A stretch of DNA of 52,338 nt from positions 1 through 52,338 of the IMG/VR virus record IMGVR_UViG_3300006638_000005. One strand, written 5' to 3'. Positions 27,851-33,575 of this stretch are shown here, piece by piece (positions within the stretch are counted from its first letter, which is position 1; each line of letters opens with the position of its first letter). Source of the stretch: a virus. Taxonomy: Duplodnaviria; Caudoviricetes. Below the pieces are notes generated by a model. That model was not told the origin of the DNA and ran no database searches. It saw only the letters and a program-made list of their open reading frames with translations. The position numbers and the translations under genes were made by a program.

Positions 27851-28642
27851 CCTATAGGCTTGCTCCACGCGCAGGGCGTGCAGCGCGCCGGTCAGCGCCC
27901 ACGGCGACACACAACCAACGCGGTAAAATCAAATTGAACTCAAAAAATCAAATATAGTTTTTGGCTTGTAAAAGTCAGGTACGCGGGCGCGGAGGCAGCG
28001 CGCAATCGGCGGCCGCAACCCCTACACTAAGGCGTGGCGCACCTGTAGATACAGGCGTCCGGCGCACACACTACAGGCGTCGCATGCCGATAAGAGACGT
28101 TATCGTGAGTGTGGATACGTGCGTGTCACACCCTATATGCGTCGTCTGAGCTGTCGCTCAGTACGCCGCGCGTCGCTACAGGCACGCGCACGGAGCTGCG
28201 CACGTGCACGAGGCACTATGCGTCGCGGGCTTGGCAGGTCGAGGGCACCGGCCGCTATCGTGCCACACGTATCAACATATCCTGATGCGACGATACGAGC
28301 GCACGTTCCCTCACCCATGCGGCTATAGACAGCTATAAACCACACTTATACCACCATAAGCCACGCTCATGAGCTTATACACGTATAAATAACTCTTATA
28401 CATGCACGCAACTGGCTTTGTTTGCTTACATATGTACGTACGTCTCTACTGTCTCGCGTGCTCCGCACGCTCACCAGGGCGATCCGTCCGTGTGTCGCGA
28501 CCACGTGCCGCTATGCCACACCGTCACTCATACATTAAAGTCTGTTAATACACGTGATAACACGCAAATTAATACTTGACTTGCTACACCCAATATGAGA
28601 CCGTATGAGTGTACCTATACGGTACTAGGAGTCGATATAGTC

Positions 28643-29803
28643 ATGAGTACCGAATGGCATGAACGTGAACGCGCGCGTTTCGACGATGGTACGTACAAAC
28701 CAATCCCGGTAGCACTCAGCTACCCCGCTGAACACTTTGTACACCTGAGTGTCACTGAGACCGAGATCGACACTGTAGCTTATACACCGTCTGACGAGTA
28801 CGGCGCGCGCGACCGTCAGGTGAGACTCAAGTTTGGCCGATACCTGCATAAGACGTTTACTGACCTGACCGACGCGGAGATACAGTCGTACGTTATCGAG
28901 CTGAAGTCCGCGTTGTCTATTGAGTTGTCTGCGCCAACGCTGCATTTCGCAACGGACCGCGCGACCATTAACGATATCTTCGAGACTCGCATGTACGCTT
29001 GCGGCAGCACATACAAGAGCTGCATGCACGGCACGTTCGACGGCGACACCGTCAGGCCATACCACGTTTATGCCGATTCACCTGATGTCCAGGTAGCTTA
29101 CGTCATAGCAAACGGCAACATCAGATCCAGGTCGGTCGTCAGTGTCAAAGATAAGATCTGGGTGCGCGCGTACTCAGTCGCGGACGGAGACAATGACGCG
29201 GACTGCGGAGCGCTCAAGCAATTGCTTAAGGACGCAGGCTACTCGAAAGGCGATCTGTGCGGCAATCGCCTGACGAAGCTGGACACTGGCGACGTGATGC
29301 TGCCTTATGTCGATAATGCAGGTGCGATGGTACGCGACAACGGTGAGTACTGGACCGTTGTAGCCGACGAAGACGAAGCAGACTATACGTGTGACCGCAC
29401 GGATGGTACTGCAAGATCCGTTAACAGGTGCGAAGATTGCGGCAACCGACGTAACGACTGCGAGTGTTACGTGTGTGAGTGCTGCAATGAACGCTCGCCG
29501 GACGGGTGCGAAGAGTGCAGCATATGCGAAGAGTGCAGCCGTTGCACTCAGCATGACGGCTGCAACTGTAACAGGTGCTCCGAATGTAACGAGATAATTA
29601 TGAGACCGCGTCACAGATATATAACGTCATGCAATTGCGACCGATGCTCCGAATGCGGCGAATTAGACGACGAGTGCAACTGTGACAAGTGCGACGAATG
29701 CGGATGCCTGGAAACGGATTGTGAGTGCGAAGACGAGTCGGAAGAGTCGGAAGACGAGACCGAGACTGTTACGGTAGCTGTCGCGGACGAAGAGGCTGCA
29801 TGA
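28643..29803 (+). CDS. Early protein with SCM/PYxD-motif domain and Cys-rich, acidic C-terminus
   Basis: KFGRYL, SCMHG and LPYVD motifs; about 27 Cys in the last 125 aa. Start may be 28595. Confidence 0.75.
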   Translation: MSTEWHERERARFDDGTYKPIPVALSYPAEHFVHLSVTETEIDTVAYTPSDEYGARDRQVRLKFGRYLHKTFTDLTDAEIQSYVIELKSALSIELSAPTLHFATDRATINDIFETRMYACGSTYKSCMHGTFDGDTVRPYHVYADSPDVQVAYVIANGNIRSRSVVSVKDKIWVRAYSVADGDNDADCGALKQLLKDAGYSKGDLCGNRLTKLDTGDVMLPYVDNAGAMVRDNGEYWTVVADEDEADYTCDRTDGTARSVNRCEDCGNRRNDCECYVCECCNERSPDGCEECSICEECSRCTQHDGCNCNRCSECNEIIMRPRHRYITSCNCDRCSECGELDDECNCDKCDECGCLETDCECEDESEESEDETETVTVAVADEEAA

Positions 29804-30651
29804 AAACGAGAATGCCAGGCAACGAAGTAAAGCGTATCCGCGAAATGCTGTCTTACAGGCGGCCTGCACGGTCCAAAACTGAGTCGGAATTTATATCCCG
29901 GTACATCGATAACGTGCCTGACATATACCAGGACGAGTATGGCAATCGTTTGCTGCTTGAGTCTGACAGCAAGGTCATAATATCGTGCCATACCGACTCG
30001 GTACACCATATACCAGGTAAGCAGGTGCTTAACGTGTCGCATCAAAACATTATGTCGCTGCATAAGCACGAGCACGTGTCAAATTGTCTCGGAGCTGACG
30101 ACGCGGCCGGCGTTTACGCCGCATTACGAATGATAGAGGCCGGCGTCAAAGTGAATTACATATTTCATCGCGACGAAGAGTCGGGTGGACGCGGTAGTGC
30201 TTGGCTTGCACAAGAGTATAGCGAATGGTTAAGTACTTTCGACATTTGCCTCGCACTGGACCGACGCGGCACTAACGACGTAATCGTTTCCCAAAGCTGG
30301 GGTATGTCCGCATCCGAAGAGTTTTCCAAAGGTCTCGCGTTGCAGCTCGGTATGGAGCACAAAGCGGCAGACGGTATCTTTACAGATTCCGCAAACTACG
30401 TTGATCTGATACCGGAGTGCTCAAACCTGAGTATTGGCTACCAGCACGAGCATACGACGCGCGAAACGCTTGACTTGAACTATCTGGAACGGGTCATAGG
30501 CGCGCTGGTATCGGTCGATTGGACTAAGGTGCCGGTAGCGCGTGAACCAGGTCAGGAATGGCCTGAAATAGAGTTTGAAGACGAAAGGGAGTTACGCGAC
30601 GCAGATGTGCCGGATTGGTTGTACAGCGGGAAATGGAGCAGGACGCAGTAA
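29800..30651 (+). CDS. Zinc-dependent peptidase/hydrolase (M28/M20-like)
   Basis: HTDSVH, LGADDAAG, DEESGGRGS, LDRRG, FTDSANY and HEHT motifs; ATGA coupling. Confidence 0.85.
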   Translation: MKTRMPGNEVKRIREMLSYRRPARSKTESEFISRYIDNVPDIYQDEYGNRLLLESDSKVIISCHTDSVHHIPGKQVLNVSHQNIMSLHKHEHVSNCLGADDAAGVYAALRMIEAGVKVNYIFHRDEESGGRGSAWLAQEYSEWLSTFDICLALDRRGTNDVIVSQSWGMSASEEFSKGLALQLGMEHKAADGIFTDSANYVDLIPECSNLSIGYQHEHTTRETLDLNYLERVIGALVSVDWTKVPVAREPGQEWPEIEFEDERELRDADVPDWLYSGKWSRTQ

Positions 30652-30774
30652 CACTACGAATTAAGTCTCTCTGACAGTGTGGGACCCTCTCAGGGTCCCG
30701 GTACGGAATGGCGCCCCATGCTCACGACGCGTGTAATGTACGCGACGTGAATCTTGCGCCCGAGAGTCGAAACG

Positions 30775-31134
30775 ATGGCAATAACAATTACACGCGATTT
30801 CGCGCTTGCTGACAGATACCTTTACGATTTCAAGGTGCTGACAATATCAAAAGGCTGGGCGCAACTAGATACGCGACAGGACGCCGGTTATTTTGGTCAG
30901 TGGATCAACCCGACACGTCGCGAAATCTTCTGTTACTGCGAAGGGGACACGATACTGACTCGTTGCGATACGGACGCGGAGCTAGTAGCGGAACTGGAAC
31001 GAATCGAAACTTGGAACCGCGAGCAAGGATACGACGATTTCAGAATAGGGAAGCCTATCGCTATCGATCCGGGCTTCAGTGATGATCTGAAAGCAGCGTG
31101 TAATGCGGCCGGTCTAGCTGTATGGTTGCATTAG
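30775..31134 (+). CDS. Hypothetical phage protein (119 aa)
   Basis: DRYLYDF...GWAQLDTRQDAGYFGQWINP...YCEGD. Confidence 0.7.
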   Translation: MAITITRDFALADRYLYDFKVLTISKGWAQLDTRQDAGYFGQWINPTRREIFCYCEGDTILTRCDTDAELVAELERIETWNREQGYDDFRIGKPIAIDPGFSDDLKAACNAAGLAVWLH

Positions 31135-31730
31135 CGCTTGCAACCGCGCGCGACTCGCTCGAATCGCGCGCGGTCGAATCCTGCCTTACATCGCTCGCGC
31201 CGGCGTCGCGTCGCGTCTATGCGGCTCGCATCCGAGACTACCTTGCATGGTCGCGTGGCTCTCCGCTGGACCGCGAACACGTCCAGCGTTACATGCGCGC
31301 GCTCGAACTACAAGCGGCGTCAGCACAAGTCCGAAACCAGGCTTTAGCGGCACTAAAGAAACTGGCCGGCGAAGCCGCGGAGCTGGCCTGGATAGAACAA
31401 TCCGCGGCGGCGCAAATAGGGCGCATCAAGGCGCGCCGCATCACAGGTATCAGGTCGGGCAAGTGGCTGACGCGCGATCAGGCACAACGGTTGCTCGCGG
31501 CGCCAGACCGCACAACGGTACAGGGCAGGCGTGACAGCGTGGTACTTGCGTTGCTGTTAGGGTGCGGCCTAAGGCGCGACGAAGCTGTAAGGCTGACATC
31601 GGCACAATGTATCGCGATGGACGGGCGCATGGTGCTGCGGAATGTCGAGGGTAAGGGCGGGCGCATCAGGTCCGTCAGCGTGCCCGGGTGGGCACAAACG
31701 ACAATCGAAAACTGGATAAAGGAGCTATAA
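31122..31730 (+). CDS. Tyrosine recombinase, N-terminal part (core-binding domain plus catalytic R and K)
   Basis: SRRVY, RNQALAALK, RRDSVVLALLLGCGLRRDE and GKGGRIRSV motifs; stops before HxxR. Confidence 0.85.
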   Translation: MVALALATARDSLESRAVESCLTSLAPASRRVYAARIRDYLAWSRGSPLDREHVQRYMRALELQAASAQVRNQALAALKKLAGEAAELAWIEQSAAAQIGRIKARRITGIRSGKWLTRDQAQRLLAAPDRTTVQGRRDSVVLALLLGCGLRRDEAVRLTSAQCIAMDGRMVLRNVEGKGGRIRSVSVPGWAQTTIENWIKEL

Positions 31731-31739
31731 GGATACGAC

Positions 31740-31943
31740 ATGAAAAATAGAACAAGCGCGACGGCCAGACGTAATGACCGGATACGTGATGAGCACGAAG
31801 CCAAGCTTGCACGCGGTTACGATCCGGCTGAACCGTGGAGCGATTACGCGTTGGATCAGGCGGCATGGCGCATATCCATCGGTACCGGGACGCAGGCGGA
31901 CAAAGATGCACTGGCACACCAGAGGGCCGAGGTGTCCAAATGA
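31740..31943 (+). CDS. Hypothetical protein between the recombinase halves (67 aa)
   Basis: AAGGA RBS; ORF track. Confidence 0.55.
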   Translation: MKNRTSATARRNDRIRDEHEAKLARGYDPAEPWSDYALDQAAWRISIGTGTQADKDALAHQRAEVSK

Positions 31944-32074
31944 CATCACCTCCATTTGCGGATCGGAATGCACAAACCGTAAAACGCCTGGTGCAAACAG
32001 GTGACGCGGAAATGGCTGGATTACAAGCAAAGTTACTCGTACATGACTGGCGGGTGGCTCTTGGCGAGATATAG
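31940..32074 (+). CDS. Hypothetical 44-aa protein between the recombinase halves
   Basis: MTSPPFADRNAQ...; GAGGT RBS and ATGA coupling. Confidence 0.4.
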   Translation: MTSPPFADRNAQTVKRLVQTGDAEMAGLQAKLLVHDWRVALGEI

Positions 32075-32360
32075 CCTGGTACTGCGCGCCGTCCGACGCG
32101 ACGGCTCCATCAACGGTTCCCTCAGCTCGTCCGCCGTGCGCGACATCGTGCGGCGGTACGGGCGCGCTATTGGCGTGCCTGATCTCGCGCCGCATGACCT
32201 GAGACGGACAATGGCTAAACTTTCTCGCGAAGGTGGCGCGCCGATGGAAACGATCCAGAAGACGTTAGGTCACGCGAGCCTGCGGACGACTGAAATTTAC
32301 ACGGCCACTGGTGAAGAGGCGAACGCCGGCGACTTTCTGCGACTGGAAGGAGCGAAATGA
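32001..32360 (+). CDS. Tyrosine recombinase, C-terminal part (HxxR, H, catalytic Y)
   Basis: LAPHDLRRT...IQKTLGHASLRTTEIY; start uncertain (GTG 32001 or ATG 32043). Confidence 0.8.
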   Translation: MTRKWLDYKQSYSYMTGGWLLARYSLVLRAVRRDGSINGSLSSSAVRDIVRRYGRAIGVPDLAPHDLRRTMAKLSREGGAPMETIQKTLGHASLRTTEIYTATGEEANAGDFLRLEGAK

Positions 32361-32578
32361 ACGAGTATTACACCGAATACCTGAAAACACACGGCACGCC
32401 CGCCGAGCTACGCGAGATCCTCGGTACAGGCTGGGGTATCTGCCGCCCGACACAGCGTAATCTGGAAAGGTACGCACGCTGCATCACCAAAAAGCAATAC
32501 GACGAGGCGAACCGGCTCGCGGTTGCGCGTCGTGTTGTAGCGTGTACATCGCGTCAAGTCAGTAGTCCGCTTCCCTGA
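32357..32578 (+). CDS. Hypothetical protein (73 aa)
   Basis: AAGGAG RBS; ATGA coupling. Confidence 0.55.
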   Translation: MNEYYTEYLKTHGTPAELREILGTGWGICRPTQRNLERYARCITKKQYDEANRLAVARRVVACTSRQVSSPLP

Positions 32579-33416
32579 ACTCGTCTTCGTGCGGCAGCTC
32601 CCGTTCCTGAACATCGTCCAATGGAGCTGCCGTTGTTGCCGTTTGTTCCGGCACAACTTCACCATAAAACAGCGCATGCATTTTCTCTTTGGTTTTAGCT
32701 CGTTTCTCGCGATCCTTGCGCCTGAACCCCGTAATCTTGCTGACGTGCGCATCCTCAAGCGCTTTGAACTCAGGCGAGTCCGGCAGCCCCATGAACGCAA
32801 TGATCGTGCCAAACTTGTCCCGCACAACGTCGCGCTTCGGGTTCGCGTAGTAAGGCACAAGGTTCTCGGGGTCGCCGCGATCCAGCTTCGGCAGTATACG
32901 CGTAACGGTCACTTCCAAGTCCGAGTGCCAGTGGTAATCTTCGTCAACGTAGTAGCGCGGCCTGAAGTTAGGGCAGTTCTCCGCGGCCAGCTTTCGCAGC
33001 AGCCGCGCAGGCTGGTCGCCTCCGGGCATTGTGAACGTCGCGGCACAACATTCGCACAGGTAAATCCACTGTTGCGTCGTCTCATCGCGGCACAATATCT
33101 GGAGCGCGCGACCATGCAGCACTTCGGGACCATCGGGGTCGTTTACGCGCTTCAGTCTGTTGCCCATCGGGCTGTAGAACCGCATTCCGGTCGCGTCAAC
33201 AGCGTTTGAGCGTAGTCGGCGAGCACAACCACAGCTATATCTACTCTTGTAGTAGGCTTGCGGGTAGGCCAGCACTACCTCGGTGCCGCAGTCGCAAACA
33301 CATACGATATCGCTCCACGATCCCGGTCTGGCTTGGCGCACAATTGTAAATAGAGTTCCGGTTAAACGCTGTTTCTCACTGAAAACATTACTGTTAGCTG
33401 CCATAATTGACATCAT
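32559..33416 (-). CDS. Protein with two CxCxC zinc-binding repeats of the kind found N-terminal to HNH/AP2 endonucleases (285 aa)
   Basis: VCVCDCG...SCGC and WIYLCECC motifs; no HNH catalytic motif seen. Confidence 0.65.
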   Translation of the reverse strand: MMSIMAANSNVFSEKQRLTGTLFTIVRQARPGSWSDIVCVCDCGTEVVLAYPQAYYKSRYSCGCARRLRSNAVDATGMRFYSPMGNRLKRVNDPDGPEVLHGRALQILCRDETTQQWIYLCECCAATFTMPGGDQPARLLRKLAAENCPNFRPRYYVDEDYHWHSDLEVTVTRILPKLDRGDPENLVPYYANPKRDVVRDKFGTIIAFMGLPDSPEFKALEDAHVSKITGFRRKDREKRAKTKEKMHALFYGEVVPEQTATTAAPLDDVQERELPHEDEFREADY

Positions 33417-33421
33417 AACAT

Positions 33422-33541
33422 TATATTTAATTATATTGTAGCGCTAAGGTACCTCCGTTCACGCGCGGGCGCATTTTAAAAAGCTCTTTGGCGCGCATAC
33501 GTGAGAGACGGTACCTTAGCGCTACAATATAATTAAATATA
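33422..33541. repeat. Perfect 32-bp inverted repeat with 56-bp spacer
   Basis: TATATTTAATTATATTGTAGCGCTAAGGTACC (33422-33453) and its exact reverse complement (33510-33541). Confidence 0.95.
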
Positions 33542-33575
33542 GATTGATGTTATTCTTGTAGCAGGTACAAACACA

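Follow-up and report, generated by a model that had tools for sequence, protein, structure and literature searches.

A phage tyrosine recombinase gene divided into two conserved halves with variable small genes nested between them

INTRODUCTION

The genes of some phage and virus enzymes occur in pieces. In the T4-type phages these include nrdA, split by mobE, in Aeromonas phage Aeh1, the topoisomerase genes 39 and 60 with mobA in T4, and the DNA polymerase genes 43A and 43B in phages 25 and 44RR; according to a review (PMC2988022), the pieces of the Aeh1 reductase and those of 43A/43B have been shown to reassemble. In archaeal viruses and plasmids the gene of the 'suicidal' integrases of the SSV type is found as int(N) and int(C) pieces (PMC8371274 and PMC7253208). 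Here we describe a locus in which the gene for a tyrosine recombinase is divided into an N-half and a C-half by small genes that vary between related phages. It lies in the virus record IMGVR_UViG_3300006638_000005 (Duplodnaviria; Caudoviricetes), of 52,338 bp and estimated to be 83% complete; the whole of this stretch is termed the window, and positions are counted from its first nucleotide (nt). The locus is a variant of the known kinds of split gene that was not previously found in the literature searched. That search, with supplementary files outside its scope, found no naturally occurring tyrosine recombinase encoded by two genes with cargo nested between them; the split forms it returned were T4-type homing-endonuclease splits, archaeal integrases split by integration, and engineered split recombinases.

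The resemblance to the T4-type split genes, as these are set out in PMC2988022, is in architecture. An enzyme gene is cut in a functionally critical region into two open reading frames (ORFs) that are both kept, the insert is promoterless and lies in the transcript of the host gene, and overlaps of start and stop codons suggest translational coupling. The T4-type pieces must reassemble, and the same is expected here. While the insert there is a homing endonuclease or an untranslated spacer, no nuclease domain is found here and the cargo changes from locus to locus. Each T4-type case involves few phages, whereas the present split extends over a large clade, with 43 protein clusters of the N-half-only type and 58 of C-halves, and the enzyme here is a tyrosine recombinase.

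With the SSV-type integrases the locus shares a tyrosine integrase gene in an N piece and a C piece. In the SSV type the attachment site lies within the gene, and integration leaves inactive pieces at opposite ends of the provirus (PMC8371274); int(C) there holds the whole catalytic domain, whereas the cut described here runs through that domain. Unlike the SSV-type pieces, those of the present locus are ~300 nt apart in the virus genome and both are under selection. An SSV-like in-gene attachment site was considered and rejected, as at this separation the pieces lie inside the virus record and do not flank an integrated element.

Split-Cre is reportedly an engineered split recombinase. A split-intein phiC31 integrase has also been made (PMC6868429). 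Such enzymes give recombinase activity from two separately made fragments, as is proposed for the locus. The engineered forms are man-made and usually need dimerising or intein tags, whereas the natural cut has no added domain and falls between the helix of the Lys hairpin and the HxxR motif.

Integrons are recognized by attC-type imperfect inverted repeats at the cassette boundaries and by an attI site beside the integrase gene. Like integron arrays, the locus has one to three promoterless, co-oriented and highly variable genes at a tyrosine recombinase gene, but here they lie inside it. Unlike integrons, there are no attC-like repeats around the cargo; the repeats present are copies of the N-half tail, of 65 and 21 nt, whose unequal lengths point to homologous and illegitimate recombination, not to site-specific capture.

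Among solved structures the best matches of P0040, an unsplit relative, are 4a8e (XerC-like, E 3e-16) and 1a0p (XerD, E 1e-13). The enzyme of the window shares with XerC and XerD the fold family, and the catalytic residues and their order. It differs from these single-chain enzymes in being phage-borne, with genes for helix-turn-helix (HTH), ParB-like and helicase proteins nearby.

RESULTS

The two halves form complementary parts of one catalytic domain

The N-half (31122..31730, + strand; identified from the ORF list and Pfam) encodes 202 amino acids (aa), ending in ENWIKEL followed by TAA. The C-half (32043..32360, + strand) encodes 105 aa from the ATG at 32043; its frame is open from a GTG at 32001, giving 119 aa. 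Both exceed the curated cut-off of Pfam family PF00589 (27.1 bits) and are thus members of that family, the N-half matching profile positions 1-84 of 172 with 37.9 bits and the C-half positions 103-168 with 48.3 bits. The two ranges are complementary, and each ORF is thus one piece of a single catalytic domain. That domain is not carried on a single polypeptide. The segments 31122..31730 and 32001..32360 share one frame, but translation of 31122-32363 gives exactly three stop codons between them, and these and two further ORFs lie between profile positions 84 and 103.

The N-half comprises a putative SAM-like core-binding domain and the beginning of the catalytic domain, including Arg151 and Lys178 (in a GKG motif). 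The C-half, numbered from the ATG at 32043, carries His51-x-x-Arg54, His77 and Tyr86, so that the full catalytic set (Arg, Lys, His-x-x-Arg, His and Tyr) is present across the two. Arg151 was placed by comparison with the XerD alignment of P0040. In alignments of relatives (A1, 41 rows; A2, 17 rows) Lys178, His51, Arg54, His77 and Tyr86 are invariant, and Arg151 is nearly so. The N-half of the window scores 15.9 and 17.8 bits for the core-binding profiles PF02899 and PF13495, under their cut-offs of 22.3 and 27; the N-half of the related locus L008 scores 23.9 bits for PF02899, over its cut-off.

A preliminary description of the window had read the gene as split in two with its catalytic residues all present, and the gap as holding two small ORFs with ribosome-binding sites and three in-frame stops. 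The ORF list, the partial PF00589 matches, the alignments and the translation bear out this reading.

The halves are predicted to dock into one fold

Three runs of complex prediction gave interaction prediction scores from aligned errors (ipSAE) of 0.87, 0.87 and 0.88 for the two halves, against 0.00 for the best of three controls. The mark reached there is attained by 58 of 80 solved complexes and by 2 of 110 mismatched pairs. The runs agree in at least 89% of contacts, with a partner pLDDT (predicted local distance difference test) of at least 68. In the predicted interface residues 113-202 of the N-half are opposed to residues 10-78 of the C-half, the chain ends are adjacent, and the C-terminus of the N-half (residues 195-202) contacts residues 10-15 of the C-half. 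By comparison with the P0040-XerD alignment the cut corresponds to ~XerD 193-197, in a loop separated from the Lys172 hairpin by a helix.

Structure prediction had been put forward in the preliminary description as a check, and the halves are predicted to dock into one fold. Such a pass may stem from likeness to solved single-chain recombinases, so it shows fit to a known fold rather than binding in the cell. We infer that the halves may bind each other.

The split is widespread among related phages

Viral, metagenome and genome contigs were scanned using either the halves or aligned N-half relatives as query, and unsplit P0040 was mapped by tblastn onto 222 sequences, of which 216 could be classified. 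The gene is contiguous in 178, in two pieces in 15 rows and present as the N-part only in 23. Among the two-piece rows are duplicates (of the window, L014 and L018) as well as three genes with plain frameshifts (L070, L215 and L220), and many of the N-part-only sequences are cut by the end of the contig. After removal of duplicates, the N-half stops 2-16 codons past a conserved Trp in 15 loci; in L020 it stops ~15 codons further on. A C-half is present in all nine loci with enough downstream sequence (the window, L014, L015, L018, L019, L020, L045, L142 and L152), while L143, L154 and L042 have 700-1000 nt of other genes and then the contig ends. The halves share a frame in five of these nine split loci and are in different frames in four. 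The common frame noted in the preliminary description is therefore real in the window but a coincidence, with no value as a clue.

Protein searches give a similar picture. Among 70 N-half relatives (E up to 1e-10) 43 are N-half-only, a label that denotes the lack of a C-terminal HxxR or LGH motif, and several of these have identical tails with shared stops. A search with the C-half restricted to proteins of 57-184 aa gave 58 stand-alone C-halves (84-167 aa); the HxxR, LGH and Tyr are kept in 57 of them, and most start with M-x-LLRS. For ten pairs of N and C proteins the longest contigs are equal in length. The split is seen across lineages only 44-60% identical. A C-half search of 50%-representatives recovered the integrase family at large (8265 matches, E up to 0.001) and was uninformative about the split. 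In the GenBank phage collection blastn of 30700-32700 gave zero matches, and tblastn with the N-half gave one weak match at 37% identity.

The gene order int, minus-strand CxC gene, HTH, ParB is common to split and unsplit members, and from this shared downstream synteny the split and unsplit loci are therefore orthologous and belong to one phage group. A lake-water run (X3), compared over window positions 31128-32381, contains 263 contig pieces of both halves at 85-99% identity and high summed depth. No piece of the window insert is among them, and at one loose end the sequence continues into the start of a different cargo. The run suggests that related phages form a very diverse population outside soil.

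To judge from these comparisons, the split is an old and conserved architecture and not fresh damage. The preliminary description had favoured a settled split and had asked whether the split point is conserved while the insert varies. Both are upheld across the loci: 15 stop in the same region, the C-half is found wherever it can be checked, and the inserts differ.

Both halves are under purifying selection in a clade with repeated changes of state

Ratios of non-synonymous to synonymous substitution (dN/dS) were calculated by the Nei-Gojobori method and are given for pairs with dS below 2, L152 being omitted. For the window and L142, the N-half has a ratio of 0.090 over 189 codons at dS 0.58, and the C-half one of 0.181 over 91 codons at dS 0.79. 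For the N-half it is 0.144 against L143 and 0.098 against L144, and in all 29 reported pairs it lies within 0.09-0.36. Purifying selection on both halves, a further check named in the preliminary description, is thus found, and selection has kept both since before these split lineages diverged.

A quick maximum-likelihood tree was made from N-domain columns only (123 rows, 190 columns), omitting eight duplicate loci and taking 25 randomly chosen of ~168 outgroup loci. All split forms fall in one well-supported clade of 76 rows, with unsplit forms nested inside it. Within the well-supported subclade of the window 23 of 23 rows are split-like; the preliminary description had allowed for the contrary, that close relatives would be contiguous and the halves in neutral decay, which does not agree with this count or with the low dN/dS. 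When rows are scored as either full (62) or split-like (58), with 3 set aside, the tree requires 12 changes, at least 5 of them forced by well-supported branches. Splitting or re-fusing thus occurred several times.

The unsplit P0040 group has an outgroup-like linker, AW-HKAAG-x-x-DGYLLRS. Odd linkers (KEIAQGAMLLRS or KEVDSAQTDRLLRS), or in P0046 a 60-residue filler at the split site, are found in other unsplit forms, which have the appearance of re-fusions. In the L020 group the cut lies elsewhere, at a second point after LLR-x-x-K, yet the group has the same ETAQ-stop/ATG junction, which suggests that it may have imported the cargo module along with the ribosome-binding region. Two further proteins have unusual forms of the N-half: in P0010 it is fused in frame to a small CxxC...CxxC protein, and in P0013 it has a 55-residue in-frame insertion in the core-binding domain.

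Cargo genes are joined to both halves by overlapping or close stop and start codons

In the window the gap contains two ORFs on the + strand. Cargo ORF 1 (31740..31943, 67 aa, from the ORF list) has AAGGA six nt before its ATG. Cargo ORF 2 (31940..32074, 44 aa) has GAGGTG at 31929-31934, 5 nt upstream of its ATG, which overlaps the stop codon of ORF 1 (ATGA), and at the 3' end this ORF runs 32 nt into the C-half. The first junction (31719..31733, + strand) comprises AAGGAG at 31719-31724, which encodes Lys-Glu, then TAA at 31728-31730 and AAGGA at 31729-31733. The preliminary description regarded the NWIKEL end with its AAGGAG as recoded. This is not sustained, as the Lys-Glu is also found in the unsplit P0030, P0043 and P0046; the sequence is native and also serves as a ribosome-binding site. 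The Val-Pro-x-Trp codons near the end of the N-half hold small palindromes (by eye), which are accounted for by the codons themselves. Beyond the C-half, a small ORF of 73 aa (32357..32578, + strand) has an ATG that overlaps the C-half stop (ATGA), and it probably closes the operon. Neither promoter-like sites nor terminator-like sites on the + strand were found within 30500-33378.

The same kinds of junction recur in the relatives. Between N-half and cargo ATGA occurs in 9 of 15 loci and GTGA in two, and in two the cargo start is just upstream of the stop; the window cargo starts 9 nt downstream of it. GGAG-type boxes are supplied by the final codons of the N-half. Many N-half tails end in ETAQ, EAQ or SAQ, corresponding to a conserved GCACAATGA in the integrase frame, though the cargo behind varies. 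The junction of cargo and C-half is ATGCCTAA in L014, ATGCCTGA in L018 and ATGA in L045, the cargo stop overlapping the C-half ATG in all three, while L020 has a 3-nt spacer after GGAG. Overlaps of this kind are typical of translational coupling, which they would be expected to provide here.

The window cargo ORFs both lack a family in Pfam and PHROG, and none was found in PADLOC. Only two other protein clusters are like cargo ORF 1, with ~80% identity across its C-terminal half; an Atlas search with this 67-aa sequence gave no usable feature match, and its structure rows all had a template modelling (TM) score < 0.5. The cargo of relatives gave only sub-threshold matches to DUF6931 and DUF7666 in Pfam, and PHROGs of unknown function. 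A Pfam scan of 15 cargo ORFs from 10 loci found no nuclease family.

Cargo varies between conserved flanks and is probably exchanged by recombination

The gaps range from 216 to 1094 nt and hold one to three co-oriented ORFs, the content of which varies by locus. L142, L143 and L144, with N-halves 87-90% identical to that of the window, hold different inserts; that of L142, whose N-half is 90% identical, consists of two other ORFs. The sole recurrent cargo in the loci examined is an Ala-repeat protein family (L015:1266-1838, L143:2659-3339 and L154:988-1689, recognized by sequence). It has an N-terminal domain with conserved Cys and Trp (RADW-x-LWW) followed by long Ala-rich AAxAAxxAA repeats, and its Pfam matches, to DUF6931 and DUF7666, are only sub-threshold.

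Some cargo genes are preceded by copies of the N-half tail. In L018 a 65-nt copy, 98% identical, lies directly before the third cargo gene (L018:6253-6654). It is in frame and still reads as a former N-half end with its stop/ATG overlap. The gene itself encodes 133 aa with ~24 copies of a 9-nt unit (Cys-Ser-Asp/Gly-Cys-Ser repeats), and the protein matches the unknown-function family phrog_15341 (E 6e-13). In L142 a 21-nt copy (81%) precedes the second cargo gene. Alignment of window positions 31560-31760 with L142, L143 and L144 (A3) reveals a mosaic: over its last ~70 nt the N-half is nearly the same in the window as in L142, and in L143 as in L144, while the 100 nt preceding these differ among all four. 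The mosaic 3' end indicates recombination breakpoints within the gene, and together with the tail copies it fits homologous exchange in the conserved halves with occasional illegitimate joins.

The window insert has no target-site duplication, terminal inverted repeats, or flanking direct or inverted repeats, only matches of chance size. A repeat search on the window and five relatives likewise gave only chance-size repeats, coding tandem repeats and the N-half tail copies. The unequal lengths of these copies and the lack of att-like repeats speak against site-specific capture of cargo.

Genome context and host

Upstream of the locus are genes for an M28-type peptidase and a PHROG of unknown function, and downstream those for HTH, ParB-like and helicase proteins. 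The window has no tRNA, and no att or dif-like site was identified. A Cys-rich protein of 402 aa (28595-29803, + strand) has many CxxC pairs at its C-terminal end, and another of 285 aa (32559-33416, - strand) has repeated CxCDCG motifs; the two lie on either side of the operon, and neither has a family. Homologues of the 285-aa protein hold the same place beside the integrase in relatives. The gap between its gene and the HTH gene (33379-33553) contains five promoter-like sites on both strands, against 1.6 expected, and is possibly a divergent control region.

Chromosomal relatives were taken from a species-representative bacterial genome collection. The best 80 of 174 matches are 35-44% identical, nearly all in Acidobacteriota assemblies, and the host phylum is probably Acidobacteriota. 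Two chromosomal genes of Acidobacteriaceae (L087:5992-6516 and L138:5956-6549) break off at the exact split residue, L087 having an in-frame stop. A search of these genomes for the C-part gave nothing but full-length paralogues and short fragments, and no match begins at the split point (their positions relative to the truncated genes being unmapped). The truncated genes are read as ordinary pseudogenes.

DISCUSSION

The locus is probably a tyrosine recombinase made as two polypeptides, with the internal gap acting as a slot for exchangeable accessory genes. Both pieces are retained and under selection, the junction sequences are of the coupled type, and there is no promoter- or terminator-like site inside the locus. 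A single transcript would carry the N-half, one or more small cargo genes and the C-half, and ribosomes would move from ORF to ORF through the close or overlapping stop and start codons. The halves would then associate non-covalently, rebuilding an ordinary catalytic domain. The conserved coding flanks would let recombination between related phages swap the cargo, and occasional illegitimate joins would put cargo genes in tandem. The assembled enzyme may recombine DNA, and could serve either to integrate the phage or, as a resolvase, to separate multimers of a ParB-bearing episome.

Several observations weigh against this reading. The C-half of the window lacks the M-x-LLRS start typical of its relatives, and inspection of the sequence found no clear Shine-Dalgarno before the ATG at 32043 or the GTG at 32001, so that its translation rests on reinitiation inside the 32-nt overlap. 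In the tree 47 of 115 inner branches are weakly supported. The nesting of unsplit forms in the clade, with its 12 changes of state, indicates that the split is dispensable. The gene can also be lost in this phage group, as the unsplit lineage of L151 (2960-4207), L155 and P0052 is visibly decayed, with Gln in place of the His of HxxR and a frame that runs past LGHA into the HTH gene. Finally, no member of the split clade is among the best 80 of 174 bacterial matches, and thus no integrated prophage demonstrates integration by the split enzyme.

Four other accounts of the pieces were weighed, together with a more active role for the gap. It is unlikely that the halves have separate jobs and are not a recombinase, the N-half being for example a DNA-binding regulator and the C-half something else. 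Repressors with an integrase fold exist, and the N-half contains the whole DNA-binding domain. A phage repressor with an integrase-like fold has been reported (10.1101/2025.11.27.690993), and lends this idea some support. Against it, residues required only for catalysis are invariant or nearly so on both pieces, the pieces occur together in 9 of 9 checkable loci, and the halves are predicted to rebuild one domain.

An equally speculative proposal gives the gap an active part in the system. The enzyme might capture and exchange promoterless cassettes within its own gene, in an integron-like manner. Alternatively the nested proteins and coupled translation might set the amount of C-half, gating assembly of the two-piece recombinase or its direction.

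It is very unlikely that the locus is a dead gene, a pair of pseudogenes created by insertion and kept only by linkage. The weak start context of the window C-half, the decay of the related unsplit lineage, and the lack of a split-form prophage among the bacterial genome matches listed would be consistent with this. However, dN/dS is 0.09-0.18 in both halves at dS of 0.6-0.8 since the divergence of the window and L142, both already split. The catalytic residues are invariant or nearly so in the aligned halves and are present in 57 of 58 stand-alone C-halves, and the split persists across lineages of only 44-60% identity. The recent disruption entertained in the preliminary description likewise finds no support, the split being conserved and the halves free of neutral decay.

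Slightly more doubtful still is that the halves are rejoined by a self-splicing intron, precise DNA excision or translational bypass into a single-chain enzyme, an activation that the preliminary description had also raised. The halves of the window do share a frame, and unsplit forms inside the clade indicate that insert-free genes arise in evolution. But no Rfam family was found at E up to 1 across 30500-33000, and the insert RNA folds no better than shuffled sequences (z = -0.87). The inserts (216-1094 nt) are unrelated in sequence and have ORFs coupled to both flanks, the frames of the halves differ in four of nine split loci, and the window insert is without flanking direct or inverted repeats. 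Contigs of three DNA runs were compared, two of which contain the whole stretch (and may be its source) while the third covers the halves only. The insert is present in contigs of two runs and no contig joins across it, though contigs may fail to include rare forms. In one contig 108 nt inside the C-half are skipped (32198 to 32307). The joined form sought as a check is thus not seen in these contigs, and an intein is ruled out by the three in-frame stops.

Least probable is that a homing endonuclease drove the cargo in, since despite the same outcome of a two-piece gene, promoterless insert and start/stop overlaps as in T4-type split genes (PMC2988022), none of the 15 cargo ORFs matches a Pfam nuclease family, their PHROGs are only families of unknown function, and the cargo varies by locus, which is not the mark of one homing gene.

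A two-piece recombinase with a slot for accessory genes would be an unusual phage route to variable genes, which are placed inside another gene with its conserved halves as recombination anchors and its transcript and ribosomes borrowed. As the cargo has no family of known function and changes between phages with 87-90% identical N-halves, its genes are candidates for host interaction or counter-defence in soil phages, probably those of Acidobacteriota. To our knowledge tyrosine recombinases have been studied and engineered as single chains. If the pieces are active, the locus would provide an evolution-tested cut site in the catalytic domain, a possible guide for the design of split recombinases, and would pose the structural question of how active-site residues from two chains assemble on DNA. 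If the gap is itself an active part, split integrases would serve a large group of soil phages as a programmable platform for accessory genes.

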